Source: Patescibacteria group bacterium (GTDB lineage Bacteria; Patescibacteriota; Microgenomatia; UBA1400; MFAQ01). From it: a stretch of 64,000 nt of DNA. The stretch lies in the NCBI GenBank assembly GCA_943355005.1, contig CALRDV010000003.1, forward strand, positions 72,590 through 136,589, written 5' to 3'. This document shows positions 10,611-46,826 of this stretch, in pieces. The notes below the pieces were generated by a model. The model worked only from the letters and a program-made list of their open reading frames with translations, was not told the DNA's origin and made no database searches. Each line of letters begins with the position of its first letter. The first letter of the stretch is position 1. Both the position numbers and the translations under genes were made by a program.

Positions 10611-10700
10611 CTGTCATTCTGAACTCGATTCAGAATCCAGAAATACCTGGATGTCCCTCACCAGATCGGGACTTTCAGCCCTATCAGGTCCGGCATGACA
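10611..10700 (+). repeat. Composite hairpin repeat: a type D unit (gtcattctgaactcgattcagaatcc) followed by a type C unit carrying an internal ~27-nt insertion.
   Basis: Same arrangement as 27746-27812. Confidence 0.8.
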
Positions 10701-10729
10701 ATTTTTTTGTGTAAAATAGGATATGCACA

Positions 10730-11086
10730 TTGAGAGGAGAAGTTATGAAGCTTATTTTGGTTACTGATCTCAACAATGAAGAAATTGCCAGAAACATTGT
10801 ATATATGTTGGGCAAGAATGAATTCGATATTGTGACTGACTATTTTGACTCAAATGGTAAGTTTACGGATCGCAAGGTGATGAGGAAGAAAACTTTATCT
10901 CATATGGATCCCGGTTCGTTTACCATCAACAATGGGCTTACGCGAATTCCATTTTTGGGAAGTAGGGCCATAATTTGGGATTTAAAGTGTGAGCATGTGA
11001 CAGTTGATTTTCAGGGTGACGGTGTAATTTTTTTGAATAGAATTTTGAAGGATAACAAAACAATTTCCAGAACAATTCTTGTTTAG
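10730..11086 (+). CDS. Hypothetical protein.
   Basis: 118 aa ORF with a terminator-like hairpin at 11100-11125. Confidence 0.5.
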   Translation: MRGEVMKLILVTDLNNEEIARNIVYMLGKNEFDIVTDYFDSNGKFTDRKVMRKKTLSHMDPGSFTINNGLTRIPFLGSRAIIWDLKCEHVTVDFQGDGVIFLNRILKDNKTISRTILV

Positions 11087-11282
11087 TCCTCTATCCCTCA
11101 CATCCAGTGGGGGATTTTTTGTGCCTGATATTCGGATATTTTTCGTCTGTCTTATAGAAAATTTCAAGTGATAATTACTCAGGCACGGGTTTATAGAATG
11201 ACCCGCTGTAGCGGTTAAAGTAATGAAAATGAGCAAGTTTTATGCAGTTGACATCGAGTGTGAAAAGCCATAAGGTGTTAGT

Positions 11283-12836
11283 GTGAGTTTTTATCAAAAA
11301 TACCGTCCAAAGAAAATTGCGGAACTAGACTTGGCGTCTGTTCGTGATGTCCTACTTTCTACTCTTTCTTCCGGAAAGATTTCCCATGCATATTTGTTTG
11401 TTGGTCCCCGTGGTTCAGGAAAGACTAGTACGGCTCGAATCTTGGCTCAAATCGTTAACTGCGAAAAAAATCAAGGTAAATCAAAAGATTTTGCCGAACC
11501 ATGTACTGAGTGTGAAGCCTGCCAAGTCATCAGTAGGGGGAGTAGTGTAGATGTCATCGAGATTGATGCGGCCAGTAATGGACTAGTAGATGATATTCGG
11601 GAACTGCGGGACAGAGTTAGACTTTCGCCTGTCCAGCTGAAGAAAAAGGTCTACATAATTGATGAGGTCCACATGGTATCCACAGCGGGCTTCAACGCTC
11701 TTTTGAAGACACTTGAAGAGCCCCCCGCACATGCTTTGTTCATTCTCTGTACTACGGAATCTCAAAAAGTTCCCGAGACTATAGTGAGTCGTTGCGCCAG
11801 GGTAAATTTTACAAAAGCTACTATTGATGAAGTGGTTGGCTCTCTGATGAAAGCAGTTAAAGGAGAGAAGATTAGTATCGAAGATGAGATTTTAAGGGAG
11901 ATTGCTGAGGCAACGGATGGTAGTTTTCGTGAAGGGCATAAAATTCTAGAACAAATTTCTTCCTATGGTTCCAAAATAGATGAAGTGGTGTTAGCTAAAG
12001 TGCTGGGGGTAGTAGGTAGACATTCGGTAGTTAAACTTTTGGAAGCAGTTAATTCTGGGGACACAGGAGTAATCACAAAGATGTTTGATGAGATGGAAAA
12101 AACCGGTGTTAAAGCGTCGTTGCTTAGCTCTTCACTTCTTACGGCTGCTAAACTCGAAATGGAAAATAAATTGAAGATTGGAGAAAGTCCGTCGAAGTAT
12201 CTAAAGATGATTGACAGTTTGATTACGGCTTCCGATAGAATAAAAATTTCACCTTTGCCAATGCTACCTCTAGAAATTGCACTACTAGCACTAGCACTTG
12301 AAGATGGTGGAGGAGGGATCCGCCCAAAAGTCCAAACGCCTGCCCCGGATCCGGAAATCCGCCAAGATTCCATGGTTAAAGCCAGTGTAGAAAGCTTGAT
12401 AAAGAAAGAAGAAACTCCTGTGATGGATATTATTAGTACTCATGTGGCCACTTCAAATACTACACCAGATTCTCTTGTAAATATTGAAAGTGTAAAGACC
12501 GGGTGGGTCGATTTTCTGAATCATATGTCCGTGAGTAATGGTTCACTGGCCGGTATGTTGCGATTGGTTTCACCTGTTGATGTGCAAGGAAAATCATTAA
12601 CGATTTCCGTTACTTCCAGATTTCATTTGGATATGTTGGAGAGAGATGTAAAGAGAAAACTCATCGAGGAGCAGATGGCCAAAGTTTGGGGTCCGATGAC
12701 TTTTAAATGTATCCTGACGGATAAGGTGATAAGGACGGAACCTCTAGTAGAAGATGCTAATGTTTCTGAGCCGAAGGACGAAGTTCTGAACGCTACCGGC
12801 AGTGTTATGTCTGCCGCGGAGAAGATTTTTGGGTAA
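11283..12836 (+). CDS. dnaX: DNA polymerase III subunit gamma/tau.
   Basis: YQKYRPKKIAEL...GPRGSGKTSTARILAQ Walker A and a CTECEACQ zinc module. GTG start. Confidence 0.9.
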   Translation: MSFYQKYRPKKIAELDLASVRDVLLSTLSSGKISHAYLFVGPRGSGKTSTARILAQIVNCEKNQGKSKDFAEPCTECEACQVISRGSSVDVIEIDAASNGLVDDIRELRDRVRLSPVQLKKKVYIIDEVHMVSTAGFNALLKTLEEPPAHALFILCTTESQKVPETIVSRCARVNFTKATIDEVVGSLMKAVKGEKISIEDEILREIAEATDGSFREGHKILEQISSYGSKIDEVVLAKVLGVVGRHSVVKLLEAVNSGDTGVITKMFDEMEKTGVKASLLSSSLLTAAKLEMENKLKIGESPSKYLKMIDSLITASDRIKISPLPMLPLEIALLALALEDGGGGIRPKVQTPAPDPEIRQDSMVKASVESLIKKEETPVMDIISTHVATSNTTPDSLVNIESVKTGWVDFLNHMSVSNGSLAGMLRLVSPVDVQGKSLTISVTSRFHLDMLERDVKRKLIEEQMAKVWGPMTFKCILTDKVIRTEPLVEDANVSEPKDEVLNATGSVMSAAEKIFG

Positions 12837-12888
12837 TGATGGTGAGGTTTGATATACAATAGGAGATGTTAGAAATTACGAAATAAAC

Positions 12889-13182
12889 ATGTTTAACGGA
12901 ATAAAACAATTTGGCGCTCAGGGTGCTGCTCTTACCAAACTAGCCTTACTTCAGAGGAAGATTGCCGGTCACAAGACCGAGATTGAAGATGGAGACGTCA
13001 GGGCTGTAGTTACGGGAGACGGTAAGCTTAAAGAACTCTACGTGGGTGGTGAGAATATGAATCAAGCCGTAAAAGTCATTAATGAAGCTATCACCAAGGC
13101 TCAAAAATACGCCGCCGAGGAAATGAAGGATTCGATGGGAGACTTGTCTAAGGTATTAGGCAATCTACCGAAAGGGGCTTAG
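12889..13182 (+). CDS. ybaB: Nucleoid-associated protein YbaB/EbfC.
   Basis: 97 aa immediately downstream of dnaX, with a YbaB-like pattern (GGENMNQAVKVINEAITKAQ). Confidence 0.85.
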   Translation: MFNGIKQFGAQGAALTKLALLQRKIAGHKTEIEDGDVRAVVTGDGKLKELYVGGENMNQAVKVINEAITKAQKYAAEEMKDSMGDLSKVLGNLPKGA

Positions 13183-13183
13183 A

Positions 13184-13639
13184 ATGGCGGACACAGAAAA
13201 GATGAGTGAATTAGAGCTAATTGCTTTAAATGAAAGTTTGCAAAAATCTTTGGACCTGTGGAATACTGAGTATCAATATAACAAGGTAGTAGGGAGAAAA
13301 CATTTTGAAATAAAGCATGATGCCAGAAATCATTTTATTGATATTGTTAAAACTCATTTAGAATCTAAACAAAACGTTTTAGATTTAAATTTAGAAATAA
13401 TGGAGAGTAGTGTTAATGAAAAAGAGTTAGTAGGGTTTCTTGAAAAAGTAACTCCAGAGCCAGGGTTTCACATAATCAATGTAAAAAGCCTCGATGAAGG
13501 CGAAAAATCCAAAACTTTACCTAAAATTCTTTTCCCATTAGCTGATACGGATGTGATGTGGGTATCAGGGACAGGAAACAAAGCGTTTATGATAAGACCT
13601 GATGATATTGTTTCGATAAAATTTACGATGCCGTCCTAG
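13184..13639 (+). CDS. Hypothetical protein inserted between ybaB and recR.
   Basis: 151 aa. It starts 2 nt after the ybaB stop, so translational coupling is likely. AT-rich. Confidence 0.55.
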   Translation: MADTEKMSELELIALNESLQKSLDLWNTEYQYNKVVGRKHFEIKHDARNHFIDIVKTHLESKQNVLDLNLEIMESSVNEKELVGFLEKVTPEPGFHIINVKSLDEGEKSKTLPKILFPLADTDVMWVSGTGNKAFMIRPDDIVSIKFTMPS

Positions 13640-13652
13640 CACGAACAATTCA

Positions 13653-15341
13653 ATGGAAATTATTTATGACGAGGTTGATGATGGGCTATCGGTAGAAGAT
13701 TTGCGTGAGAAATATTTTAATCTTGAGTTTTCCAACTTTTACGAACATAGTCATTCATTATTAAATAATTCTAATCGAATTGAGAATTTTTTGTGGCGTG
13801 AACCATTGAGAAAAATGAATTTAGATTTTATAAACAGAGCCGGAATCCTAATTTTGAGTGCGGAAGAAGATAAAAATGTCAATTTTTCAGTCTACAGAAG
13901 TTTATTGGCAAATTGGTTGAAAAAATCAAGTGAAGTAATGTCGACCGGATATGAGCCGAATCAATTATTTGCAAAAATTTTAAATGATGGGTTAAATAGG
14001 TATAGAAAATTTCTTGAAATAGAAAATGATCAAAATTTAAAAAAAGATATAACTTTTCTAGAATCCTCAGGTAGTATTGTTAGAGAACTTTCTAATCTCT
14101 CAAACACAACCGGTTTAGAATCGATAATTGGTGACAATTTAGAATATTTTGCTTGTGGTAAAAACGTGGAGGATCGGACGGCTTATTTTAATAACTTGGG
14201 GCTGATGGCTGACCACGACTTGGAGTTAGAAATATTGACAAAGATTGTTGCAAATCTAAACGTAGATGATTCCATAGATTTGTCTCAGACATTTTCCGTA
14301 GAAGGGGTTTCCGAAATTAATCACGCGGATTTAAACCGTAAGCAAGACGAAATCGATGTACCTCTAAAAATTTGCTATGTTTTAGCTCATGCAAAAGAAA
14401 ATAATAAAGTGGAAGAGTTTATTAAGGTATTTAAGGGATATTGTGACAGGCGTTCGTCTGTCGGTTATAGTACTTCAATTGAAGATGGACTAGTTTATAG
14501 ATTAATTGAAAGTAATATATTTTCTAAATATTCCCTGAGCGAGAATCTGGCAGATTGGTTATTTAAAGCTAAAGTAGAAAAAGTTAAAGTTGATTATTCG
14601 GAGAACAGAGCCTTTTGGAATGAAATTGCAGGTGAAACTCACTTGGACGAGGTTTGTGAAAGAATGTCCAAAATGGATCCTGAGCGAAGAATGGACTTAT
14701 TAAAAAAATGGCTACCGGACGAAGATGAATTTGTTCACAAGTTTATAGCTCAGTTAATGAATTCCGGGGTTCATAGTAGTTTAGATGAGAAGAAGGAATG
14801 GAGTGTGTGGATCGATTTACTGGATAAAAATATTGAAGTTCTTATCCAGTCCAAAAAATTGAAAGAAATCTGGGAGAGTATTGGTGCTTCACCCCAAACT
14901 CTTCTATATCAACTTGGCTTTTGGTTAGCAAATTTTCCTGTACAAAGTTTGAAAAACGTAGGTACTGAACAGCTGGATTTAATTGAAGGTGTATCACTTG
15001 GTGGATGGCGGTCTAAACTTTGTGGAAATGCTGAAATTTACTTTATTGAGGCGTTTAGTTTAAACAAAATTACTTCCTTTTATGATGGTGCTTTGCTGTA
15101 CAAAGGTTTGGGAGAAGGGGCAGCTATTTGTACTAGAGATTTTGTGGTTGAGTCAGACACGGGACGAAAAAGTATTTTTAAACGTGGTTGTTATTACGTT
15201 CCGGTATATGGTACGAGTACAAACAACTGGTCTCTTGCAAGACCTCCGGGTGGAGATGAACTACCTAGAACTTCTCAAGATTTAATGCGATTAGCTGATA
15301 GATGGAATGAAAATCATCCCGAAGTAAAACAGCAAGTTTAA
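13653..15341 (+). CDS. Large hypothetical protein (562 aa) with no recognisable motif.
   Basis: Long uninterrupted ORF that is AT-rich compared with its flanks. Confidence 0.6.
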   Translation: MEIIYDEVDDGLSVEDLREKYFNLEFSNFYEHSHSLLNNSNRIENFLWREPLRKMNLDFINRAGILILSAEEDKNVNFSVYRSLLANWLKKSSEVMSTGYEPNQLFAKILNDGLNRYRKFLEIENDQNLKKDITFLESSGSIVRELSNLSNTTGLESIIGDNLEYFACGKNVEDRTAYFNNLGLMADHDLELEILTKIVANLNVDDSIDLSQTFSVEGVSEINHADLNRKQDEIDVPLKICYVLAHAKENNKVEEFIKVFKGYCDRRSSVGYSTSIEDGLVYRLIESNIFSKYSLSENLADWLFKAKVEKVKVDYSENRAFWNEIAGETHLDEVCERMSKMDPERRMDLLKKWLPDEDEFVHKFIAQLMNSGVHSSLDEKKEWSVWIDLLDKNIEVLIQSKKLKEIWESIGASPQTLLYQLGFWLANFPVQSLKNVGTEQLDLIEGVSLGGWRSKLCGNAEIYFIEAFSLNKITSFYDGALLYKGLGEGAAICTRDFVVESDTGRKSIFKRGCYYVPVYGTSTNNWSLARPPGGDELPRTSQDLMRLADRWNENHPEVKQQV

Positions 15342-15357
15342 GATAGAATTATAGATT

Positions 15358-15966
15358 ATGAGAAGTATCCGCCCTGTTCAGAAAGTTATAGATGCGTTTG
15401 AGTCTTTGCCCGGTATTGGGCCCAAGTCGGCGGCTAGACTGGCATATTATTTATTGAATGTGCCACAGGATAAATTATCTCGTTTTGCACAGGCATTGGA
15501 GAATCTTAAGAAGGATACCAAGCTTTGTGCTTTGTGTTTTAACGTTGGTGAGGAGGAGTTTTGTCCTGTGTGTCAAGAAGAAGCAAGAGATAAAAGTTTG
15601 GTTTGTGTGGTAGAAACATCCTTGGATTTGTTGGCTTTTGAGAGAGCGGATGGATTTAAAGGTGTTTATCATGTCCTTGGTGGCTCAGTAAATCCTTTGG
15701 CCGGTATTGGTCCAAATGATTTAAGAATTCCTCAGCTGATGGCGAGACTGAAAATTGGAGAAATAAAGGAGTTGATAATTGCGACAAATCCAAACATGGA
15801 AGGGGAAGCGACGGCGATGTTTATCATTGAACGGATGAAGGAACTTGGACTGAAAGATATTGTTAGAGTGACTAGGATTGGTAGGGGTCTGCCGACGGGA
15901 GCTGATATCGAGTATGCGGACGGACAAACTCTCACCAGAGCCTTGGAAGGTCGAGGAGAGATGTAG
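15358..15966 (+). CDS. recR: Recombination protein RecR.
   Basis: C4 zinc finger CALC...CPVC and a Toprim-like C-terminal region. Conserved dnaX-ybaB-recR context. Confidence 0.9.
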   Translation: MRSIRPVQKVIDAFESLPGIGPKSAARLAYYLLNVPQDKLSRFAQALENLKKDTKLCALCFNVGEEEFCPVCQEEARDKSLVCVVETSLDLLAFERADGFKGVYHVLGGSVNPLAGIGPNDLRIPQLMARLKIGEIKELIIATNPNMEGEATAMFIIERMKELGLKDIVRVTRIGRGLPTGADIEYADGQTLTRALEGRGEM

Positions 15967-16048
15967 TCTAGTGTTGATGCTTGACGCGCAGTTTACCTCA
16001 TGATATTATAGGGTGACCGTTATTTCACAAGTTAATTGGAGGTGTTAG

Positions 16049-16588
16049 ATGATATTGAGTGTTAACATAAGCACGACAAATCAAGTTGTTGATGATCTGG
16101 TACTAAAGGCGGGATTTGACCATCCGGAGCTTATTTGGGAGGCATTGCCGGTTTCTGGGACTAAACCGCAAAACCCGAATCTTTCTGGTATGAGCCGGGT
16201 TCAGTTTTATGAACAGGTGGATAAGTATCTAAGTGAGCTTAGAGAAACTCAAGAAAGACTATTACTGATTGTAGCTGCACTTTCACAGTGGCTGGAATCT
16301 TGTGGTCGCCCTAAACTCGAAAACTTGAAGCCGAGTGATATGTCAGACAAGGAAGCCTTGAAGGTGCACCTTGACTATTTTAGGCTCGTGGTCATGGTTG
16401 AAAGACAGATTATGTCTTGCAAGGGTACTGCTATTAATGCCTATAATGCCAGGCTTGAAGCTACGAGAGTTTTAGCAAAAGTGTATTTAGAAGAAGCTGA
16501 CTTGGTGAAGGAATTGATACGATTAGGTTTTACTTTTGAAAAAAGTAAGCCTGAGCGATCGAGTTGGTGGCTATTTTTGAAATGGTAA
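16049..16588 (+). CDS. Hypothetical protein.
   Basis: 179 aa ORF. Terminator at 16591-16615 (gccggggttattcccggt followed by T7). Confidence 0.55.
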   Translation: MILSVNISTTNQVVDDLVLKAGFDHPELIWEALPVSGTKPQNPNLSGMSRVQFYEQVDKYLSELRETQERLLLIVAALSQWLESCGRPKLENLKPSDMSDKEALKVHLDYFRLVVMVERQIMSCKGTAINAYNARLEATRVLAKVYLEEADLVKELIRLGFTFEKSKPERSSWWLFLKW

Positions 16589-16631
16589 AAGCCGGGGTTA
16601 TTCCCGGTTTTTTTGTGGAAAGTGCCTAGAC

Positions 16632-16660
16632 TTGACAAGCCTATAGTAATGTGATATAAT
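16632..16660 (+). promoter_or_regulatory. Near-perfect sigma70 promoter (TTGACA, 17 nt, extended -10 TGaTATAAT).
   Basis: Read directly from cttgacaagcctatagtaatgtgatataat. Confidence 0.6.
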
Positions 16661-16807
16661 ATCCACAAGTTATCAGAGGGATATAGGGGGATAGTACGAA
16701 AGGGTCTAGGCAGCGTCCTTTAATGAGATTGAGTTCTGAATCAGAACCCAACTTTCTCGCTGTTTTAAAAATTAACCCGGGTCACCATTTGGTGACCCGG
16801 GTATTTC

Positions 16808-17299
16808 GTGTCAAAATATCTATTTATCTTCTTGGGACTTGGTTATAATGAATTAATGCCCGCACCACTAGGAGGAATTGGCCAACAGGTGGCCGACAAT
16901 TTATTTGAACTTGGGAAAAGTACTGCTAAATCCGTTGCCAAAGCGGGCACTGATTTGGCACAAACCACTATTGAGCAAATAATGGGAGCGCCAAGTGGGG
17001 TTGGGGACCCCGCTCAGAACAAGCCAAAAGAATCTTCTTCTCAAGAAATCGAAAGAAAAAAGGCGGAAGGTAAGCAGAAAGATGCTCAGCAATATAACCG
17101 AGTAAAAGCCGAGCTGGAACAGTACCGACAGAGGAAGCAGCAGCTGGATCAGCAAATTGCCAATGAAAAAGCTCAGGAGAATCGAGTGAAGCAGCAAGAA
17201 GAGGGGCAAGAAAAACAAAAGAAGGAGAGTTTTATTCAAAAATTGTTACATAAAGCTGCCGGGGGAGCTCACGGGGAGACTGATAGACAAAAAGAGTAA
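16808..17299 (+). CDS. Hypothetical protein with a Gln/Lys-rich coiled-coil C-terminus.
   Basis: 163 aa ORF. The start is uncertain and an internal Met is possible. Confidence 0.5.
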   Translation: MSKYLFIFLGLGYNELMPAPLGGIGQQVADNLFELGKSTAKSVAKAGTDLAQTTIEQIMGAPSGVGDPAQNKPKESSSQEIERKKAEGKQKDAQQYNRVKAELEQYRQRKQQLDQQIANEKAQENRVKQQEEGQEKQKKESFIQKLLHKAAGGAHGETDRQKE

Positions 17300-18997
17300 C
17301 TATATTTTTCTTAGTTGATTGTTTTCTATGACGTGGGTGACTCCGAGGGATTTTAGTTTGAAAATAATTTCGGGATTTAGGCCGTATGCGTTTATATTTT
17401 CGACCATGTCAATCCAGTCTTTTGTGGCGAAGCCGGAGAATCCGCCCAAGCGACGGTGTTTGTGAAACAGGGAGTATAAGGAACGAACAGATTCAATTTC
17501 GTGATCCGGCATGTTCCAGAGTTTGATAGGAAGTTCCAGTATGATATCGTCTGAGGGTAGATTTTTAACTTCTTGATATACGGGATGCATATTTATATTT
17601 ACTGGGTAACCTTTGAGAGGTAGGTCGGCTTCCAGAAACAAAAATGAAAGTATAAGTAGTATAAATGTAAATTTTGTCTTGGCAGCGAGATTCTTGAAAA
17701 TGGGAACTAGCTTGTAGCCGATAATGATTACTGCTGCGAGTAATGCGAGGAGGATGAAGCGGCTGGGAGTGCGGAAGCCGGTGAAGCCTGGGAAGAGGTA
17801 ATAGAAAAGGGCGTACGGAAGGGGAGTGGGGAAGCTAAATATTCGAAGATTTTTGCCGAATATCTTGAGGACTGGGCCGAGGGACATGATAAGGGAGAAG
17901 AATAAAATATATTTCCAGGGATCAAAAATATGGCGTTTCGGACCGCGCCAAAGAAATTGCGTTAAGTATTTCTTCAATGTCATTCCGGGCTTGACCCGGA
18001 ATCTATATAAATAAAATCCGCTAATTCTGGATTCCGGCTCGGTGGCCGGAATGACGACTTTTCTGTTTAGCCTGGATTGCCACGCCTTTTGAAATAGGCT
18101 CTCAATGACAAGAGTTGTGATAAAAAGAGTAATTACTGTCCGGCTGTGATATTTGGTGAAGATTTCGTCCAATCCTAGTGAGAAGGCGGCGGCGTCGCGG
18201 ATGGGTCGGGTGGCTTCGGGAAATTGTAAATGAAGCTGGAGATATGGAAAGAGTAAAGATATCCAGAGTGGAAGAATGAAAATGAATTGAATTAGAATTT
18301 TTAGAAACTGCTCTTTCTTTCTCCAAAACAGACAAAAACAAGCGAAAAAGATTAAGTAAAAGGTAAAAATGCTTTCAGCTAATTGGGCCGTACTGGAGAG
18401 CAGAACAAGTGTAAGAAAGATATTTTTGTCTGTGTCTTGGTATCTGAGGTAGAAATAGATGGTTAGGATAGTGAGCCAAAGTGAGAAAATTTGTAAATGG
18501 GGTAAGTAGGATAGGTGGAAGCCGGTAAAATTGAAAAGAATTGTAGCCAATAACGTAACCCAGTGATCCTTGAATAAATAGTTAAAAAGTAGGTATGAGC
18601 TAATGATGGTCAGGAGGAAATTAGTGATTAAAGCAACGTTAAAAATTAATACCGGGTGATTGGTCAGAGCTCGAAATGGGAGGGTTATTATGGATGTAGT
18701 CAAAAAGAGGTCGGAATAGGTAAGGGTGTCTTTCTCCGGGGCGAAAAAAGTGCCAGAATATAGAGGTTTGTGCTCGATTAAGTTGTTTTGAACTTGACCG
18801 ATGATATAAGCAATGAGACGAGTGTCGTTGTTGTCCGGTAGGATGTCCTTGGGGTAGATAAAAGCCGACGGATAAACAAATAATATTAGAAGTATCGAAA
18901 AAATGCTGATGATAAGCCACTTTCTGACCTGCAAGGAGAGTCCTTGCAGGTAAATAGGGGTATGGGGATTCATGGCTAGAGTATAGCAGTGATACAA
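17300..18997 (-). CDS. Large polytopic membrane protein. A GT-C-type glycosyltransferase-like fold is possible but not verified.
   Basis: 565 aa with many TM segments. A composite hairpin repeat is embedded in-frame at 17979-18085. Confidence 0.7.
   Translation of the reverse strand: MYHCYTLAMNPHTPIYLQGLSLQVRKWLIISIFSILLILFVYPSAFIYPKDILPDNNDTRLIAYIIGQVQNNLIEHKPLYSGTFFAPEKDTLTYSDLFLTTSIITLPFRALTNHPVLIFNVALITNFLLTIISSYLLFNYLFKDHWVTLLATILFNFTGFHLSYLPHLQIFSLWLTILTIYFYLRYQDTDKNIFLTLVLLSSTAQLAESIFTFYLIFFACFCLFWRKKEQFLKILIQFIFILPLWISLLFPYLQLHLQFPEATRPIRDAAAFSLGLDEIFTKYHSRTVITLFITTLVIESLFQKAWQSRLNRKVVIPATEPESRISGFYLYRFRVKPGMTLKKYLTQFLWRGPKRHIFDPWKYILFFSLIMSLGPVLKIFGKNLRIFSFPTPLPYALFYYLFPGFTGFRTPSRFILLALLAAVIIIGYKLVPIFKNLAAKTKFTFILLILSFLFLEADLPLKGYPVNINMHPVYQEVKNLPSDDIILELPIKLWNMPDHEIESVRSLYSLFHKHRRLGGFSGFATKDWIDMVENINAYGLNPEIIFKLKSLGVTHVIENNQLRKI
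17979..18085. repeat. Composite hairpin repeat: reverse type B unit, forward type B unit, then a partial type E unit, all inside the membrane protein CDS.
   Basis: tgtcattccgggcttgacccggaatctatata ... ctggattccggctcggtggccggaatgacgac ... ggattgccacg. Confidence 0.8.
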
Positions 18998-19039
18998 TAT
19001 AGGGTGTAACGGAAATTTGTACCTTAAGGAGTTTAAAAA

Positions 19040-19507
19040 ATGAACAGATTCCAGGTAGATGATTTGGAAATATTGTCAAAGTTGGCTTTGAATGGAAATG
19101 AAAACAGTCGAGAGGTTTGCGTTTCCTATTGGTCTGGAGTACTAACGGCTCTATATATTGCAAGGGAATATGCCCGGGCTCATGTCGACGCTCCAAGATG
19201 GGCTTTTTGGAAACTGGTTTTCGGAAAAATCTCTCCTGTACCTTCCAGGGCTGCTTTCCTAAATCTACTGGAAGAGTACACAAACGACGAGTTTTTCTTT
19301 CCTGGAGATATGATTATAAACAATGACTCCAGAATAGGTGTGTTTGGCGAATATTATTATAAGGGTATGGCTGATGCTATTGAGGTGGGTATTAGACAAG
19401 CACCAAAAGTATTTGAGTTAGTTTCGTCAAAAAGTACAGAGGATTTGAGGGATTGGCTTATGTCGAAGATTAGCTGGGCTAGACAAAACCTGGAAAAGTA
19501 TTTGTGA
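19040..19507 (+). CDS. Hypothetical protein.
   Basis: 155 aa ORF. Terminator at 19515-19542 (gcgacccgccacggcgggtcgc followed by T5). Confidence 0.5.
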   Translation: MNRFQVDDLEILSKLALNGNENSREVCVSYWSGVLTALYIAREYARAHVDAPRWAFWKLVFGKISPVPSRAAFLNLLEEYTNDEFFFPGDMIINNDSRIGVFGEYYYKGMADAIEVGIRQAPKVFELVSSKSTEDLRDWLMSKISWARQNLEKYL

Positions 19508-19710
19508 GATTTGAGCGACCCGCCACGGCGGGTCGCTTTTTGTTGATTGTGGTATATTTGACTATTAAACTAGGTTTGGAAGCGTGCACCAAACTGTAGA
19601 AGGCGGCTAATGACCGACGAAGTCCTGCGTAAAAGGATAAATTAAGAAATCCGCCATAAGGCGAGACTAAAGCGTTGAGGTGGAACCGTCCGACCTAAAG
19701 TCGAGACCCG

Positions 19711-19736
19711 CAACAAATATTTATAAATATTTGTTG
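19711..19736. promoter_or_regulatory. Perfect 26-nt palindrome caacaaatatttataaatatttgttg, ending 2 nt before the PIG-L start codon.
   Basis: Read directly. It overlaps the expected ribosome-binding region. Confidence 0.45.
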
Positions 19737-19738
19737 TT

Positions 19739-20461
19739 ATGAAATCAATCGATAGTTATTTGAGTCAGATTACCAATAAAAAATTGTTGGTGGTTTTTCC
19801 GCACCCGGATGATGAATCCGTCATGGCGGGAGGTATTATCCAAAGAGCAATGACTCATGGCTTTCAGGTGACAGTGCTTACTCTTACTGAGGGTGATAGG
19901 GGAAAGATACATATTTCCGGAAAGGGGAGAAGTGTGGCAGAAATCCGCAGGCAGGAAATGGCGCTAGCTATGAGTAGGCTAGGGGTGATGGATTGGATTA
20001 TGTGGAGATTTGATGACGGCAAACTTCGGCAAAAGAATGTTTGGAGGGATAGACTTAAAAATTTTATCTCGGATACTAAACCTGGTTTGATAGTCACCTA
20101 CGATTTATCAGGAGTTACGAGTCATCCTGACCACATTAGTGCCTCTTTGGAGGTATTGAGGGAGGTAAAAAGAGGTGGAACCGCCAAACTTCTTTGGGTA
20201 AGTTTTGAGGGTTTTATGAAAGATAGGATAGTGGATAAAAGAGTGCTGAGTTATTTGAAATCGCCTAAGTACTCATTACGTTTAAGCCGCAGAGATGCTG
20301 CGAAGAAGTGGCGAGCGGTCTTTGCGCATAAAAGCCAGGGGCTAGGTGGCTTCCTGGGTTTCCCTTGGTGGATGCTAATGTTTGTAGCTAGACATGAGTG
20401 GTACTCTGAATTCGAGCCTGATGCTAAGTACAAATACAAGTTCGTGCCGTTCAAAATCTAG
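19739..20461 (+). CDS. PIG-L/LmbE family deacetylase.
   Basis: N-terminal VVFPHPDDESVMAGG motif typical of LmbE-like N-acetylglucosaminyl deacetylases. Confidence 0.8.
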   Translation: MKSIDSYLSQITNKKLLVVFPHPDDESVMAGGIIQRAMTHGFQVTVLTLTEGDRGKIHISGKGRSVAEIRRQEMALAMSRLGVMDWIMWRFDDGKLRQKNVWRDRLKNFISDTKPGLIVTYDLSGVTSHPDHISASLEVLREVKRGGTAKLLWVSFEGFMKDRIVDKRVLSYLKSPKYSLRLSRRDAAKKWRAVFAHKSQGLGGFLGFPWWMLMFVARHEWYSEFEPDAKYKYKFVPFKI

Positions 20462-22462: not shown

Positions 22463-23902
22463 GTGATGCTAAAGATATTTAATTCGCTATCCAAGAATAT
22501 TGAGGAATTTAAGCCTATTAAGCTGGGCGAGGTGGGTATGTATGCCTGTGGTCCCACGGTCTACGACTATCCTCATATCGGCCATGGACGGAAATATGTG
22601 AACGATGACGTCCTGAAACGGGTTCTGGAGGTAGTGGAGGGTTACAAGGTGGAGCATGTGCAAAACATTACCGATGTGGGGCACTTGGTATCGGATGCCG
22701 ACGAAGGTGAAGATAAGCTGGAAAAGGGAGCCAAGAAAGCCGGGAAGACGGTCTGGGAGGTAGCTCAGGAGTTTACCGATTATTTTTTGAAGGAAATGGA
22801 CTCTTTGAATATTATCCGCCCGGACATTGAGTGCAAGGCGACGGATCACATTCCTGAACAAGTTGAACTGATAAAGAAGATTATTGAAAATGGTTATGGT
22901 TATGATACTGCTGAAGCGGTTTACTTTGATGTGACTAAGTTTGAAGATTATGGAAAGCTTTTTGGGCAGTCCTTGGAGGATAAGCTGGTGGGAGTTCGTG
23001 AGGAAGTGGTGACGGACAATAGTAAGAAACATCCGGCTGACTTTGCTTTGTGGTTTAAAAGAGTCGGGAAGTATGCCGATCATGTGATGCATTGGGAAAG
23101 TCCTTGGGGAGATGGCTTCCCCGGCTGGCATATCGAGTGTAGTGCCATGAGCATGAAGTATCTGGGAGAGCAAATTGATTTGCATACAGGCGGAGAAGAT
23201 CACTTGTCCATTCACCATCCAAATGAAATTGCCCAGAGTGAAGCGGCGACCGGAAAGAAGCCTTTTGTAAAGTACTGGTTCCATAGTTTGTTCCTTGCGG
23301 TCGATGGTAAGAAAATGAGTAAAAGTTTGGGTAATGTCTACAAAGTCGCCGATATCGTGGAAAAAGGTTTTTCACCTATGGCACTTAGATACTATTATTT
23401 ATCTGCACACTATCGTAAACAAATGAATTTTTCCTGGGAGGGAATGGAGGGGGTTTCGAATTCGTATAAGAAACTGAAGAAGGAATTTTTGTCTTTGCGA
23501 GTAGAAGGAGGGCAGGACAAAAATGTTTTTGGTAAAAATGCAGTAGAACTTTCCGGCAGAGAAACATATTTCCGTGATGAGTTTGTAAATGCGGTGGAAA
23601 ATGATTTGAACATGTCTGAAGCTTTGGCAGTAGCCCGAGCTGTCTTAAAGGATGACATTCTTTCTTCTTTTGAGAAAAGAAGATTGGTGGAAAACTTTGA
23701 TAAAGTTTTTGGACTTAAACTTTCGGAGCACGATGATATGCCAATCGAAGTCCCGGCCGAAGTGACAGAGCTTGTAAACAAAAGAGAAGAAATGAGAAAG
23801 TCCAAACAGTGGGCAGAGTCCGACTCACTACGACTTGAAATCGAAAAACTTGGCTACAAGGTTTCAGACTTTTTTGACGGGGTAAAAGTGGAAAAAATAT
23901 AG
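22463..23902 (+). CDS. cysS: Cysteinyl-tRNA synthetase.
   Basis: HIGH-class motif [12 protein letters not shown] motif KMSKSLGN, and an N-terminus like CysS. Confidence 0.9.
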
Positions 23903-23945
23903 CTTGGATTGCCACGACCCGCCGTGGCGGGTCTCGCAATGACTG
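23894..23945 (+). repeat. Hairpin repeat, type E variant with a GC-rich stem (ggattgccacgacccgccgtggcgggtctcgcaatgac).
   Basis: ATTGC...GCAATGAC ends are shared with the other type E units. It probably acts as the cysS terminator. Confidence 0.7.
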
Positions 23946-24997: not shown

Positions 24998-26590
24998 TCA
25001 AGACTCCCGGTAGTGGCAGCCGATGGATTTTGGGTTCGCATAAGCAGCTTTAGCCACGATTAGGGAGACTAAGACCATGTTTCTGAGGCCTAATAATTCA
25101 TCTGACAGGGTGGCTTCCCGATAGAACTTGTTGATGGTGTTCTCCATTTGTGACAGATCCGAGATGGCTCTTTCGAGAAGTGGGGTTTTTCGAACCAATC
25201 CGACCATGTTCCACATGATGTTTTTTACCGTGTTTGCATCGGCGGACATGAGGGCGCTGTCAGCGGGGAATTTTTTGAAGTAGTTCCAAGAGGGGACGTC
25301 TGAGGAGTTTATTTTTATAGATTCCCGATCAGGTCGGGAATGACAAAATGTATTGGTAATGGATTTGGCGGCGCGGGAGCCAAACACGAGACCTTCCAGA
25401 AGGGAGGTGCTAGCCAGACGATTGCCACCGTGTAACCCCGTGCAAGAGATTTCGCCCACAGCATAAAGATTTTTTATGGATGATTTGCCAACGAGGTCTG
25501 TCAAAATTCCACCGCACATATAATGAGCGGCCGGAGAAACAGGGATGAGGTTTGTCGTAATATCTATTCCATATTTGAGACAGCTTTCATGAATCATGGG
25601 AAAATGTTTCAATATTTCTTCTTTGGAAATATAAGACTTTAAGTCCAGATATACATTTGAAGCTCCTGTCTCCAGCATTTCGGTAAAGATAGCTCTCGAG
25701 ACCTTGTCGCGGGTGGTAAGGTCTGGTTTGTCCAATTCCGGATAGTATTTTTGCATAAAAGGAATACCTTGTGAATTTGTTAGACGCGCACCTTCTCCGC
25801 GGACTGCCTCACTAATAAGGAATGGTGGAGCTCCGGTAATTTTTAAAGCGGTTGGGTGAAATTGTTCGTATTCCATATTTAGTAGCTTTGCTCCGGCACG
25901 ATAAGCCATAGCGATGCCATCTCCTCTAGCTCCTTTGGGGTTCGTAGTAAATGCAAAGATTTGGCCGTTACCACCGCTGGCTAGAATAGTAGTTTTTGCC
26001 AAAATTCTGGAAATAATGCCGTCTGCTTGATCGAAGGCGTATACCCCAACACAAGTATCGGTGCCATATTTATTCAACCAGTTATTGGTTTGGTGACCGG
26101 TAGTTATTAAGTCGACCGCAGTTAGATGATCAAAAATAGTAACGTTGCTTAATTTTTTTAAAGATTCGGTGAGATGTTCTTGAATGGATCTACCCGTAAA
26201 ATCAGAAACTTTAGCGACTCGTGGTTCTTTGTGGCCGCCCTCAAGAGCATAGGATAAATTTCCGTCTTTCTCCTTGTCAAAGGGAACGTTTGCGATTTCC
26301 AGTAATATTTTGTCTACTAAGGCAGGTCCTTCGTCAGCTAAGATTTGAGCGGCTTCAGGAAGTCCAATTCCATCGGCTGATTTTAGGATATCTTCGACTA
26401 GGTCCGGGCCACCTTTGGCAATGATGCCACCTTGGGCATAATTGGTATTTGATTCGTTTGGAGTTTCGGCTCTGGTTAATATTATTATTTTGATGGTCGG
26501 ATCCTGTTTGCTAATTTCGATAGCGGCAGTTGCTCCTGCAATGCCGGTGCCAATGATGAGTATGTCTGCTGTGAGGAGTTCTTGTTTCAT
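24998..26590 (-). CDS. nadB: L-aspartate oxidase.
   Basis: 530 aa with the FAD-binding N-terminus DILIIGTGIAGATAA. In an operon with nadA and nadC. Contains an in-frame type A repeat at 25316-25345. Confidence 0.9.
   Translation of the reverse strand: MKQELLTADILIIGTGIAGATAAIEISKQDPTIKIIILTRAETPNESNTNYAQGGIIAKGGPDLVEDILKSADGIGLPEAAQILADEGPALVDKILLEIANVPFDKEKDGNLSYALEGGHKEPRVAKVSDFTGRSIQEHLTESLKKLSNVTIFDHLTAVDLITTGHQTNNWLNKYGTDTCVGVYAFDQADGIISRILAKTTILASGGNGQIFAFTTNPKGARGDGIAMAYRAGAKLLNMEYEQFHPTALKITGAPPFLISEAVRGEGARLTNSQGIPFMQKYYPELDKPDLTTRDKVSRAIFTEMLETGASNVYLDLKSYISKEEILKHFPMIHESCLKYGIDITTNLIPVSPAAHYMCGGILTDLVGKSSIKNLYAVGEISCTGLHGGNRLASTSLLEGLVFGSRAAKSITNTFCHSRPDRESIKINSSDVPSWNYFKKFPADSALMSADANTVKNIMWNMVGLVRKTPLLERAISDLSQMENTINKFYREATLSDELLGLRNMVLVSLIVAKAAYANPKSIGCHYRES
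25316..25345 (+). repeat. Type A hairpin repeat (tatagattcccgatcaggtcgggaatgaca) inside the nadB coding sequence.
   Basis: Identical 30-mer to those at 1898 and 36182. Translated in nadB as TFCHSRPDRESIKI. Confidence 0.85.
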
Positions 26591-27752: not shown

Positions 27753-27812
27753 TCTGAACTTGATTCAGAATCCAGGATTTTCTGGATGCCGGATCGGGTC
27801 CGGCATGACAGA
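27746..27812 (+). repeat. Composite hairpin repeat (type D followed by type C) between nadA and nadC.
   Basis: tgtcattctgaacttgattcagaatccagg ... tctggatgccggatcgggtccggcatgaca. Confidence 0.8.
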
Positions 27813-36135: not shown

Positions 36136-36211
36136 TGTCATCCTCGCGAATGCGGGGATCCAGATTTATTGTACTCATTTGTATAGATTCCCGATCAGGT
36201 CGGGAATGACA
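36136..36211 (+). repeat. Composite hairpin repeat: reverse type F unit followed by a type A unit.
   Basis: tgtcatcctcgcgaatgcggggatccag ... tatagattcccgatcaggtcgggaatgaca. Confidence 0.8.
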
Positions 36212-37980: not shown

Positions 37981-38046
37981 ATGTCATGCCGGACCTGATC
38001 CGACATCCAGGCTTTTCTGGATTCCGGGTCGTAGCCCGGAATGACA
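37981..38046 (+). repeat. Composite hairpin repeat: reverse type C unit followed by a type B unit.
   Basis: gtcatgccggacctgatccgacatccag ... tctggattccgggtcgtagcccggaatgaca. Confidence 0.8.
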
Positions 38047-38062
38047 ATATTTGTATGAAGTA

Positions 38063-38803
38063 TTAGATTACCTTGGCGGTGGAGAGGTAGTCTTTGCCTT
38101 CAAATTTTTTGGTAATGGCAAAAATGGAACTACCTGGCTTAATGTCGGTTATGACAATGGTTGATTTTTTGGTCAGGGTGTACAAGACCTCTTTACCTTC
38201 GATGCTAAGGCCAATTATTTTTTTCTTTGCATCTACGGAGGAAACTTTGGCAAAGATAGTTCCAGATACCATTGCTGATGGGTCTTCCTTGATGACAATA
38301 ATTCTTTTTGCCAGAATGATATCTTCTTTTAGTAAAGTGCCAATTACGATAATTTTGTCGGAGATGGCAATAGTGGTTAGTTTGCCGGGTTTGGCTTCTT
38401 TGATGTAGGCTGTTTTGTCATCTGTGGTTATTTGGATTAACGATTCGTCTTTGGAAGTTAGAGTGATGTTGCCCGAGTTTATGGATTTAACGTAACCAAC
38501 GTATCCCACCAAGGTTTTCTGATTTATTTTTTCTTTCAAGTTTGATTCGGTGGCAGTGAGATTTTCTTTTACAAGTGACTTAATTTTTTCCTGAATATCT
38601 TCGGTTTGAGATGGGGTGGCAGCTATCGTGGCTACTTTTTCTGTGGGAGTGGCGGAAGGGGTGGCAGTCTTGGTGGGGGTTGGGGAGGCGGCAAAAACGG
38701 TAGAGTTCGGAGTTACTGGATGGATTCCTGCCTTCGCAGGAATGACTATTGTTATGGATAATATTATTAAAATTGATAGTGCAACTAATTTTTTACTTTT
38801 CAT
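38063..38803 (-). CDS. Secreted hypothetical protein with a Pro/Thr-rich linker.
   Basis: Signal peptide followed by a PTPTKTATPSATPTEK linker. Confidence 0.6.
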   Translation of the reverse strand: MKSKKLVALSILIILSITIVIPAKAGIHPVTPNSTVFAASPTPTKTATPSATPTEKVATIAATPSQTEDIQEKIKSLVKENLTATESNLKEKINQKTLVGYVGYVKSINSGNITLTSKDESLIQITTDDKTAYIKEAKPGKLTTIAISDKIIVIGTLLKEDIILAKRIIVIKEDPSAMVSGTIFAKVSSVDAKKKIIGLSIEGKEVLYTLTKKSTIVITDIKPGSSIFAITKKFEGKDYLSTAKVI

Positions 38804-42614: not shown

Positions 42615-42624
42615 CATTAAAAAA

Positions 42625-42652
42625 TACGCGCCTCGTGCGCGTATTTTTTTAC
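42625..42652 (+). terminator. Rho-independent terminator after the tRNA.
   Basis: atacgcgcctcgtgcgcgtat followed by ttttttt. Confidence 0.7.
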
Positions 42653-42662
42653 AAAAAACCCG

Positions 42663-42875: not shown

Positions 42876-42955
42876 GTAGACCTCCTGAAGGTACTGTTGG
42901 CCTATATTTTATATCATTTCTTGCTATGCTTGAGGCTTAGGTTTAAAATAGGCTC

Positions 42956-43516: not shown

Positions 43517-43538
43517 AAACCCGCCATTCGTGGCGGGT

Positions 43539-43862: not shown

Positions 43863-43952
43863 GTTCTCTCCTCTCTTTTGGGATTATTCAGGTGCCAAAC
43901 TTCGGTTATTATCCCATAAATACCTGATTATGGCTAGTTTTGACTTATAAAG

Positions 43953-44399: not shown

Positions 44400-44426
44400 A
44401 TGTTTTTTTAGTATACTCTATGTATC

Positions 44427-45531: not shown

Positions 45532-45952
45532 AATAAAACAAAATCTGTTTAAAAAATATTTAATTCTGGCCATTAGTTCGAGTTTTGTAATACTTGATAT
45601 TTTTTTGCAGTCATATTTTCGCAATAGGGGATTGGGGATTGAAAATCGAGGTGTGTCTTTTGGAATTTTTTCAGGCTGGGGTCAGGGGATTGCAATTGTA
45701 GTTTTCTTTCTTTTTATTCTATTTTCCTCAAGGAGCTTTATAAAAGGGAAGTCTGACTTAGGGTTGTTGATGATTCTGATTGGGGGCCTGGGAAACTTGA
45801 TTCCCAGGTTGTTTCAGGGCGGTGTATGGGATTATATTTATTTGCCACTTTTGCCCTTTTGGTTTAATTTTTCGGATGTCATGATAACCGGTGGGGTATT
45901 TTTGTATGGATGGAGGGAGATTGCTTCAGCTCGAGTACGAGATTCGCAATGA
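45500..45952 (+). CDS. lspA: Lipoprotein signal peptidase II.
   Basis: LspA motifs GVSFGIF and GGLGNLIPR...WDYIYL...FNFSDVMITGGV. The last codons and the TGA stop lie inside a hairpin repeat. Confidence 0.8.
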   Translation: MKLRLKRRGDEIKQNLFKKYLILAISSSFVILDIFLQSYFRNRGLGIENRGVSFGIFSGWGQGIAIVVFFLFILFSSRSFIKGKSDLGLLMILIGGLGNLIPRLFQGGVWDYIYLPLLPFWFNFSDVMITGGVFLYGWREIASARVRDSQ

Positions 45953-45995
45953 CGGGAGGGTGGAGTGAGTCTCGCCAGGGCGGGAGACGGTGACT
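45935..45995 (+). repeat. Hairpin repeat, type E variant, followed by a GC-rich palindrome (gagtctcgccagggcgggagac).
   Basis: The unit cgagtacgagattcgcaatgacgg supplies the lspA stop codon (caaTGA). Confidence 0.65.
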
Positions 45996-46012
45996 GAGAC
46001 TATAATAGGCTA

Positions 46013-46747
46013 ATGGAAATCCCAATTCTATACGAAGACAAGGACACTCTGGTAATTAACAAGCCGGTAGATTTAGTCGTAAATAGAGCTAATTCCATAA
46101 AAGGAAGGACTGTTCAAGATTGGGTGGAAGGTCTGGAATGGTTTGATGAAGCCCAAAAAAAGGATGATGATTTGTTTAGACAAAGAAGTGGTGTATGTCA
46201 TCGTTTAGATAAGGAAACAAGTGGCTGTTTGCTGATTGCTAAAAACCCTAATGCTTTGAGATATTATTTGAGTCTTTTTAAAGAAAGAAAATTGACGAAG
46301 ACTTATATGGCTTTGGTTCATGGCCGGGTAGAGCCTGATCATGGTGAGACGGTACTTCCTCTACGGAGAAACTTGTTTAATAGAGAAAAGTGGCAGGTTC
46401 ATTATGAAGGAAAGAAAGCTATTACAGAATGGACAGTGGAGAAAAGATTTATCTATCAGGGTCATGAGCATTGGCGAGATGCTTTAACATTGCTAAGATT
46501 AAATTTGAAAACGGGTAGAACTCACCAAATTAGAGTACATCTATCTTTTTTGGGATGGCCTATCTTTGCTGACGACAAATATTTGAATCGAAAGTTTTCG
46601 CGGGAGGATAGAAAGTATTTGTTTCACCATTTTCTCCATGCAGAACAAATTTCTTTTATTTCCTTTTCCGGTGATAGGGTAGATGTGCACGCTCCAGTGC
46701 CAAGTGATTGTGAAAAACTTCTAAGTTCGTTAATTGAAGAAACGTAA
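46013..46747 (+). CDS. RluA-family pseudouridine synthase (RluD/RluC-like).
   Basis: Catalytic motif HRLDKETSGCLLIAK. Confidence 0.85.
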   Translation: MEIPILYEDKDTLVINKPVDLVVNRANSIKGRTVQDWVEGLEWFDEAQKKDDDLFRQRSGVCHRLDKETSGCLLIAKNPNALRYYLSLFKERKLTKTYMALVHGRVEPDHGETVLPLRRNLFNREKWQVHYEGKKAITEWTVEKRFIYQGHEHWRDALTLLRLNLKTGRTHQIRVHLSFLGWPIFADDKYLNRKFSREDRKYLFHHFLHAEQISFISFSGDRVDVHAPVPSDCEKLLSSLIEET

Positions 46748-46749
46748 AA

Positions 46750-46826
46750 TGTCATTCCGGGCTGAGACCCGGAATCTATATGAATTTTCAAATTTCTGTA
46801 TCCCGGATCAAGTCCGGGATGACAAT
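46750..46826 (+). repeat. Composite hairpin repeat: reverse type B unit followed by a type C unit.
   Basis: gtcattccgggctgagacccggaatctatat ... tgtatcccggatcaagtccgggatgaca. Confidence 0.8.

Follow-up and report, generated by a model that had tools for sequence, protein, structure and literature searches.

The window considered here is a stretch of 64,000 nucleotides from a Patescibacteria group bacterium (Microgenomatia, UBA1400, MFAQ01; assembly GCA_943355005.1, contig CALRDV010000003.1, positions 72,590 to 136,589), in which rpsB, tsf, frr, ybeY, cysS, nadB, nadC, nadA and ychF are found together with genes for a release factor, L31, an EamA-family protein, a pseudouridine synthase and a membrane protein. 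Its genes and their homologs indicate a position near Collierbacteria: DnaX shares 72% identity with a Candidatus Collierbacteria protein, and NadB 66% with a Gottesmanbacteria protein. Small palindromic repeats (units) are scattered between and within these genes, either singly or as inverted pairs (doublets), and are considered here with regard to their family, their pairing and the manner in which the pairs are gained or lost (Table 1).

Canonical hairpin units of about 27 nt number 18 in the window at E <= 1.4e-5 (12 top-strand and 6 bottom-strand), as recognised by a covariance model, R1, which was built from 63 distinct units and run with filters off. The model was built in place of the regular expression published for Ssn-related motifs (SRM), because the latter covers only 3 of the 18. 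A unit is assigned to the strand that reads GGAT..ATGACA, the opposite strand being termed NTS-sense after the Neisseria sequence described below. On one strand the outline is (C/T)TGGAT, a stem of 7-9 bp, a loop of 3-4 nt, the second stem arm and ATGAC(A/G), and on the opposite strand GTCAT-hairpin-ATCCAG; the units thus form semi-palindromic hairpins starting and ending in AT. Stem arms distinguish class A (ATTCCCGAT/GTCGGGAAT), class B (ATTCCGGGT/GCCCGGAAT), class C (ATGCCGGAT/GTCCGGCAT), class D (ATTCTGAAT/GTTCAGAAT) and class F (ATCCCCGC/GCGAGGAT), and between classes A-F both sides of the stem change together. Double substitutions occur at 6 of 8 stem pairs across the 63 distinct units; the seeds were picked for perfect stems, and their 100% pairing is therefore by construction. 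A long-loop variant, 'E', has the outer stem ATTGC/GCAAT and six copies in the window, loop insertions being common in the family at large (the E units and, among the comparison loci designated by L numbers, L128, L164, L204 and L235). A simple unit finder returned 0.32 false units per 64 kb in first-order Markov simulations, while Rfam at gathering thresholds reported one tRNA in the window and no family covering the units. The loop of the E-type unit at 23906-23943 is itself a hairpin, GACCCGCCGTGGCGGGTC, resembling the terminator-like repeats at 10154-10183 and 19514-19543, again a hairpin within a hairpin.

All six bottom-strand units form the left half of a doublet with the layout TGTCAT-hairpin-ATCCAG, spacer, CTGGAT-hairpin-ATGACA. 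In this 'heads-out' arrangement the GTCAT heads point outward, the ATCCAG tails being turned toward each other over a distance of 14-28 nt. A top-strand unit follows 2-16 nt (model coordinates) after every bottom-strand unit except 10612-10642, whose partner (10647-10700) carries an interruption and escapes R1 even at E<10. The spacing between palindromes is exactly 14 nt (CCAG-N6-CTGG) in three of the six doublets and 24-28 nt in the others. An earlier, sequence-only reading of this DNA had listed seven composites and proposed that the units pair in fixed orientation; all seven were recovered where it had placed them, although the composite at 17979 does not end at 18085, its third unit reaching about 18110, and copies beyond its list were located as well ('E' at 5227, 23906, 27044 and 45918; a second 'F' at 30664-30693). 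Fixed orientation holds well beyond chance in permutation tests on the window: five or more such pairs arose in 0 of 100,000 random placements, and shuffling of strands at fixed positions gave P = 4.5e-4. Pairing was further counted between consecutive units no more than 60 nt apart in 242 sequences (1.59 Mb, 515 units), the material being relatives and 241 loci from other genomes. Heads-out pairs made up 104 of the 142 close pairs found, the remainder being 19 heads-in pairs and tandem pairs in one direction (13) or the other (6). Partner classes were likewise non-random, class A being joined to a tetraloop or NTS-like unit in 27 of 38 cases and class D mostly to units with TCARG-type loops; the window pairs (D+C twice, C+B, B+C', F+A and B+B') fit this asymmetric class pairing. 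Several Dehalococcoidia metagenome-assembled genomes (MAGs; L001, L059, L077, L083) carry multiple copies of another composite, which is heads-in and consists of GGAT-hairpin-ATGACA, a spacer of about 50 nt with its own hairpin and TGTCAT-hairpin-ATCC; preferred composite types therefore differ between lineages.

Comparison with relatives indicates how such pairs come and go. Two loci, L240 (DnaX 83% identical) and L241 (DnaX 75%), are syntenic with the window from rpsB to recR, and the doublet downstream of ybeY is absent from both, as a clean 89-nt indel. Filled and empty sites were compared by pairwise alignment after removal of window 10612-10700, and the spacer without this segment is collinear with that of L240. 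The doublets carry terminal inverted repeats (TGTCAT..ATGACA and beyond). The membrane-protein gene of L240 contains a doublet of its own (14746), in frame, at a site gapped by about 23 codons in the window and in L241; the doublet of the window in this gene (17978) occupies a variable loop region of the protein, as judged against L240 and L241. Treating these two doublets as orthologs with compensatory stem changes was rejected, as the protein alignment puts them at different positions of the gene. No unit was present in 21.5 kb of L241, and 15 kb of L240 contained one doublet plus a single interrupted unit, which makes the lineage of the window unusually unit-rich. The assembly GCA_964348455.1 (CAYGCQ01; L240, L016, L066, L102, L105) is titled 'uncultured Pseudomonadales', a label that looks wrong given the synteny and the 83% identity of DnaX.

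Composites are also shared between loci with their spacers. The D+C doublet of the nadC-nadA spacer is present at the same site in L118 (8649-8712; NadB 80% identical), where it is 97% identical over the 62-nt composite, with flanks at 70-78%, and the metagenome contigs L165 and L229 contain intact D+C composites whose spacer resembles that of 10612. In one Verrucomicrobiota MAG, the composites of L018 and L096, which lie on separate contigs and have unrelated flanks, are identical (100% over 66 nt, spacer included), and those of L061 and L091, likewise on separate contigs with unrelated flanks, are nearly so (96% over 73 nt, spacer included). The ybeY indel, the in-frame block of L240 and the composites recurring in one MAG support the suggestion of the sequence-only reading that composites move as larger units, and these alignments support the gain or loss of the doublet as a block, although individual doublets may have been built up stepwise.

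Folding of the doublets, which had been proposed as a check, gives four-way junctions or imperfect long hairpins when they are treated as single-stranded DNA (ssDNA). In short-spacer doublets, TGTCAT pairs with ATGACA as the outer stem of a four-way junction, CCAG pairs with CTGG in a central hairpin, and the hairpins of the two units complete the structure; the others form an imperfect long hairpin or two separate hairpins. Fold z-scores of intact doublets range from -3.0 to -5.6 (27747-27810, -5.55; 37982-38046, -4.73). The doublet at 27747-27810 reads TGTCATTCTGAACTTGATTCAGAATCCAGGATTTTCTGGATGCCGGATCGGGTCCGGCATGACA, and the 14 nt between its palindromes, CCAGGATTTTCTGG, form a small hairpin by themselves.

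The family to which the units may belong was reached through a full-text search for GTCATTCCCG, which led to the study of Chenal et al. (2025, Nat Commun, PMC11893778). There, the Neisseria dRS3 repeat is described as part of a 28-nt sequence termed 'NTS', CGTCATTCCCGCGMAVGCGGGAATCYRG, which is bound and cut by SsnA, a 94-aa GIY-YIG nuclease, only as ssDNA and only on the NTS strand; RNA is not bound. The three bases 5' of the palindrome count most for cleavage and the C directly 3' of it for binding, extension of the loop is tolerated without loss of cleavage, and degenerate SRM flank ssn homologs in many phyla (PMC11893778). In the window, GTCAT (ATGAC on the other strand) is present in 18 of 18 R1 units, the columns being invariant, and the C directly 3' of the palindrome is kept in 17 of 18 (the exception, 46794-46824, has T in place of G on the GGAT strand). 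The published SRM pattern, HGTCWYN(0-2)YYVSBRHN(0-5)WNVSBRGN(0-2)RNCYNB, matches three units (4779-4807, 30666-30693 and 36136-36163) against 0.16 expected, the other units being off by one or two stem positions. Beyond the window, the Neisseria NTS consensus at <=1 mismatch gave 33 matches in 28 loci of other phyla, mostly class-A partners. The exact class-A 27-mer GGATTCCCGATCAGGTCGGGAATGACA was found in at least 117 contigs of many phyla (one genome per species scanned), the hosts listed being Dehalococcoidia, Patescibacteria, Saccharibacteria, Smithella, Zixibacteria, Kiritimatiellia, Nitrospirales, Verrucomicrobiota, Planctomycetes and others. Because the critical positions are kept and the class-A partners match the Neisseria NTS, the window units appear to be divergent members of the SRM superfamily, most of them lying outside the published search pattern. 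The same 27-mer is also present, as a singleton in each case, in eight IMG/VR viral contigs (L242-L249), where it is preceded by an A+T-rich stretch with TAA triplets that looks like a gene end; no GIY-YIG gene is near the 27-mer in these eight contigs. Such contigs are possible vehicles for spread between phyla.

Small open reading frames (ORFs) within 60 nt of units in the 241 loci yielded one recurrent family, a single-domain GIY-YIG protein (PF01541) of about 95 aa that is Ssn-like and a candidate member of the CDD family cd10448; among solved structures and in NCBIfam, an SsnA reference was not found. In gene orientation, the cassette reads GTCAT-hairpin-ATCCAG, about 5 nt, ATG..stop, 0-5 nt and CTGGAT-hairpin-ATGACA. 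Its ends usually differ in class (an NTS-like 5' end with a class A 3' end in L028 and L006; a class D 5' end in L181), and the doublets share this asymmetry. Since the orientation of the doublets is that of SRM-ssn-SRM cassette ends, they look like gene-less cassette ends and are best read as two such ends without the gene, being either MITE-like derivatives or minimal ends; by analogy, doublet and cassette would stand in the same relation as MITE and IS, or as REPIN and RAYT locus. Taken as a whole, it is probable that the units are SRM hairpins and that the doublets are gene-less cassette ends gained and lost as blocks. The units might be acted on by an Ssn nuclease whose gene lies in another part of the genome or was once present; ssDNA at the replication fork may serve as its substrate (as suggested by the strand bias of singletons described below), and the doublet itself would be what is mobilised. 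The doublets accommodate different stem classes at their two ends and can lie in frame in coding sequence.

Several observations weigh against this explanation. The published degenerate SRM pattern fails on 15 of the 18 units, and neither the strict NTS CGTCATTCCCGCGMAVGCGGGAATCYRG nor dRS3 (ATTCCC-N8-GGGAAT) has a match in the window (0 matches). An ssn/GIY-YIG homolog was not found in the 64-kb window (tblastn, small HMM and motif regex), nor in 47 kb of the closest relative, and the one clean empty site (ybeY, against L240) shows no target-site duplication. A host function, and not selfish persistence, could explain why the nadC-nadA doublet is 97% conserved. Ssn is known only as a nuclease and is not known to carry out strand transfer or transposition. 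Moreover, the role favoured for Ssn by Chenal et al. is the limiting of transformation (PMC11893778).

An alternative is that single hairpins insert one by one, with existing units or adjacent sequence as preferred targets, the pairs resulting from successive events. Stepwise insertion of this kind would account for the seven canonical singleton units of the window, for doublet spacers that vary in length (14-28 nt) and sequence, for the combination of different stem classes and for orthologous sites occupied by different classes, and the nested module described below shows that units can be insertion targets. It is nevertheless unlikely, given that the ybeY doublet is a single clean indel and that composites identical down to the spacer recur at unrelated loci of one MAG; furthermore, it predicts neither the orientation excess (104/142) nor the match to ssn-cassette ends. 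Alternatively, the units could be host-selected structural or regulatory elements (terminators, mRNA stabilisers or promoter donors) instead of mobile DNA. Most of them occupy short spacers separating co-directional genes, conservation of the nadC-nadA doublet greatly exceeds that of its flanks, the viral-contig copies appear to sit just past gene ends, and the ATGACA tail gives -35-like hexamers toward downstream genes at 1922 and 10695. However, no unit in 1-20000 was flagged by the terminator scan, T-run terminator-like hairpins being located elsewhere, and no Rfam family matches. About 9 of the roughly 23 units are inside ORFs in either orientation, close relatives are without most units at the same sites and the same 27-mer extends across phyla, all of which render a host function as the origin of the family very unlikely. 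A -10-like hexamer is present 16-18 nt past the ATGACA tail in two cases, namely 1922-1951 (toward tsf, 10/12 matches) and 10695-10722 (toward ORF 10730, 9/12 matches); units might donate outward promoters. Units as intrinsic terminators were rejected separately, none in 1-20000 being listed as a G+C-rich hairpin with a T-run. Finally, mobilisation as REP/BIME or REPIN elements by RAYT, an IS200/IS605-type Y1 transposase, would be in line with short extragenic palindromes carrying a conserved 5' tag, with inverted doublets able to fold as long hairpins in mosaic type combinations and with a strand bias as expected for ssDNA transposition, but is extremely improbable, as the tag here is GTCAT (REP families reportedly carry GTAG or CGTC tags), ORF clustering over the 241 loci returned GIY-YIG genes only and no recurrent transposase-like family, and the sequences match the Neisseria NTS, the partner of which is SsnA by experiment.

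Table 1. Positions of the repeat units in the 64-kb window (doublets first, then tandem pairs, singletons, long-loop units and a second repeat family)
Position	Strand	Feature	Evidence or remark
10612-10642	-	class D unit, left half of doublet downstream of ybeY	R1 40.6 bits, E 1.6e-9; top strand = TGTCATTCTGAACTCGATTCAGAATCCAG
10647-10700	+	interrupted class C unit, right half	CTGGATG, module, then CCCTATCAGGTCCGGCATGACA
10654-10682	+	nested module TCCCTCACCAGATCGGGACTTTCAG(CCCT), net +25 nt	after 3rd palindrome nucleotide
27747-27777	-	class D unit, left half of intact D+C doublet, nadC-nadA spacer	R1 42.3 bits
27780-27810	+	class C unit, right half of intact D+C doublet	R1 39.2 bits
37982-38012	-	class C unit, left half of C+B doublet between EamA-family gene and ORF 38063	R1 36.8 bits; Pfam on neighbours
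38015-38046	+	class B unit, right half of C+B doublet, spacer CCAGGCTTTTCTGG	R1 39.5 bits
46750-46781	-	class B unit, left half of B+C' doublet downstream of pseudouridine synthase gene	R1 35.7 bits
46794-46824	+	class C' unit, right half of B+C' doublet, 24 nt between palindromes	R1 34.5 bits
36136-36165	-	class F unit TGTCATCCTCGCGAATGCGGGGATCCAG, left half of F+A doublet between release-factor and L31 genes	R1 29.5 bits; SRM regex match
36181-36211	+	class A unit, right half of F+A doublet, contains exact cross-phyla 27-mer	R1 41.8 bits
17978-18008	-	class B unit, left half of doublet in frame inside membrane-protein gene 17300-18997(-)	R1 41.8 bits; ORF reads through
18025-18056	+	class B' unit, right half of in-gene doublet	R1 37.5 bits
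18070-18110	+	E-like long-loop unit, tandem after B+B' doublet	R1 15.1 bits, E 0.05
1040-1076	+	E-type long-loop unit, in frame in Lys-rich N-terminal extension of rpsB	weak R1 match
1083-1114	+	class B unit, second member of E+B tandem pair	R1 38 bits
1897-1927	+	singleton class A unit, rpsB-tsf spacer	R1
2408-2438	+	singleton class B unit downstream of tsf	R1; absent in L240, L241
4777-4807	+	singleton class C' unit downstream of frr	R1, SRM pattern match; absent in L240, L241
25315-25345	+	singleton class A unit in frame in nadB (peptide CHSRPDRESI)	R1
30664-30693	+	singleton class F unit in frame in ychF (peptide MDPRIREDD)	R1, SRM pattern match
38718-38747	+	singleton unit ATTCCTGCCTTCGCAGGAAT inside ORF 38063-38803(-)	R1 31.3 bits
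5223-5259	+	E-type long-loop unit, intergenic	long-loop unit scan
23902-23944	+	E-type unit, loop = G+C-rich hairpin GACCCGCCGTGGCGGGTC, directly after cysS	weak R1 match
27040-27077	+	E-type unit in frame in nadA	long-loop unit scan
45918-45953	+	E-type long-loop unit	long-loop unit scan
18925-18950, 30564-30589, 53617-53642, 53825-53850, 54136-54161, 54363-54388, 54893-54918		copies of second palindromic family	

The two D+C doublets of the window share the same frame, the one at 10612-10700 carrying extra sequence in its right half. This had been noticed in the sequence-only reading, which put the difference at about 27 nt; the extra sequence is real, its net size being 25 nt (89 nt against 64 nt). 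Two descriptions fit it best: a 25-nt block behind GGATG together with two substitutions, or the replacement of 4 nt by 29 nt. The interrupted unit at 10647-10700 is made up of CTGGATG, TCCCTCACCAGATCGGGACTTTCAG and CCCTATCAGGTCCGGCATGACA, with two changed bases in its 5' arm relative to 27780-27810, L165 and L229, and its hairpin is lost in the fold. A second copy of the module, identical at 25 of 29 positions, lies at 1079-1107 of L240, where it interrupts a unit of a different class located between rpsB and tsf (GATGGATT + TCCCTCAGAAGATCAGGACTTTCAG + CCCACCTTCGCAGGAATGACG). In this copy, too, the module sits behind the third palindrome base, and CC and two mismatches come next. The 1.6 Mb of loci contained no copy besides these two. 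As the same module is found at the same position in another class, locus and genome, it is a discrete recurrent module and not random filler. The further proposal that elements insert into each other is supported insofar as a recurrent module occupies a fixed position within a unit, the module itself not being one of the A-F units. Two descriptions of the module were rejected, namely a reverse-oriented degenerate unit (R1 does not recognise it) and a conserved hairpin (the L240 copy lacks the short stem of the window copy).

In-frame positions inside ORFs account for about 9 of the roughly 23 window units, which may run with or against the gene; the genes concerned are nadB, nadA, ychF, rpsB (1040-1114), the membrane-protein gene (17978-18110) and ORF 38063-38803. 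Translation of the units gives the peptides CHSRPDRESI, RHCEEQRDVAIS, MDPRIREDD and MDSGSEPGMT. In NadA, the E-type unit at 27040-27077 results in a clean insertion of 18 aa relative to an 89%-identical ortholog, and NadB homologs are mostly gapped at the unit site 25315-25345. Orthologous sites occupied by different classes were observed in three cases: ychF carries class F in the window (30664-30693) and class B in L118 (4911-4942) with the same 3' boundary; nadB carries class A in the window (25315-25345) and class B in protein P0017; and the rpsB-tsf spacer carries class A in the window (1897-1927), an interrupted tetraloop-class unit in L240 (1071-1125) and none in L241. Such differences may stem from gene conversion, re-insertion or compensatory change.

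Singleton and long-loop units have a marked strand preference. All 13 of them (1044, 1083, 1897, 2408, 4777, 5227, 18070, 23906, 25315, 27044, 30664, 38718 and 45918) read GGAT..ATGACA on the G-rich top strand (two-sided binomial P = 2.4e-4), independent of the strand of the host or neighbouring gene, and the strand that SsnA would cut is therefore the other one. GC skew is positive throughout the window. The same bias is weaker in loci from other genomes (56 vs 34, P = 0.026). Such a bias suggests a link to the single-stranded DNA of the replication fork.

Among known systems, SRM/SsnA (PMC11893778) is alike in the GTCAT head, the AT-bounded palindrome with its following C, the directionality, the wide phylogenetic spread, the ssn-like genes bracketed by inverted motifs and a loop tolerant of insertions (the E units here). 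The window differs in that most units have TCARG-type loops and stems outside the published pattern, the host belongs to Patescibacteria, about 40% of units fall within ORFs (for the NTS of N. meningitidis the reported share within genes is 2%; PMC11893778), the ssn gene was not found in the 64-kb window and the gene-less cassette-end doublets are not described in PMC11893778. The NIMEs of Neisseria (dRS3-RS-dRS3; Parkhill 2000, Bentley et al. 2007, PMC1797815) similarly consist of inverted dRS3-type hairpin pairs around a short spacer, in many combinations of spacer and unit, with repeat numbers varying between related genomes. In contrast to them, the window pairs are isolated (<=3 adjacent units) rather than assembled into long intergenic arrays, their spacers of 14-28 nt are about as short as the shortest RS (19-214 bp) or shorter still, strict ATTCCC-N8-GGGAAT is missing from the window and one doublet lies in coding sequence; NIMEs are said not to occur outside Neisseria (PMC1797815).

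REP/BIME/REPIN elements with RAYT share the small tagged palindromes, the inverted doublet as the repeat unit, the mosaic pairing and a gene flanked by repeats, but have another tag, whereas the partner here is GIY-YIG instead of a Y1 transposase and window copies lie in frame within genes. The RPE of Rickettsia are reportedly palindromic repeats of about 100-150 bp located in frame in protein-coding genes. They resemble the window units, by description, in being in-frame palindromic repeats that do not destroy genes, and differ in their greater length. Rickettsia is among the SRM-rich genera according to Chenal et al. (PMC11893778), who further name the IS200/IS605 'peel and paste' elements as an analogy. 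In the latter, hairpin ends are likewise recognised on single-stranded DNA, whereas both hairpins are on the same strand there and inverted here, and the enzyme is another one. An orientation bias relative to the replication strand is a reported feature of IS200/IS605 elements, and that of the window singletons is of this kind.

Descriptions of the hairpin family and of its nuclease date only from 2025 and come mainly from Neisseria and other Pseudomonadati. On the SRM reading preferred here, the window would show the same repeats to be abundant in a genome of the candidate phyla radiation, their paired form having the architecture of nuclease-gene cassette ends and the pairs being gained and lost as blocks between close relatives, with in-frame copies in the housekeeping genes nadA, nadB, ychF and rpsB. 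The gene-less cassette-end doublets, the block indels, the class differences at orthologous sites, the in-frame copies and the 25-nt module go beyond the literature considered here. They provide concrete filled and empty sites, as well as defined substrates, for the question of whether Ssn nucleases mobilise repeats. A wider proposal, put forward tentatively and held to be rather doubtful, is that SRM-ssn-SRM cassettes are autonomous mobile elements of an unrecognised kind, driven by a GIY-YIG ssDNA nuclease, the gene-less doublets and single hairpins of which would have spread across distant phyla, including phage-like contigs. In streamlined Patescibacteria, these would colonise essential genes in frame, be overwritten by other stem classes via templated repair and be parasitised by the 25-nt module, which would target a fixed position of the hairpin arm. 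For annotation pipelines, it is useful to know that peptides such as CHSRPDRES or MDSGSEPGMT in predicted proteins of uncultured bacteria are translations of these repeats.

Apart from the units, the window contains a second, unrelated palindromic repeat family, CCTGCAAGGA-NNN-TCCTTGCAGG, with seven copies, five of which are clustered in 53.6-54.9 kb. Three tandem 63-nt repeats at 824-1012 encode a Lys-rich extension at the N terminus of ribosomal protein S2; this extension differs in length between relatives. Lastly, the starts of two neighbouring ORFs (7135-7208 and 8043-8116) are 74-nt stretches that are 91% identical, which points to local duplication of a gene start; one of these two ORFs corresponds to a HIT-family gene of the relatives.

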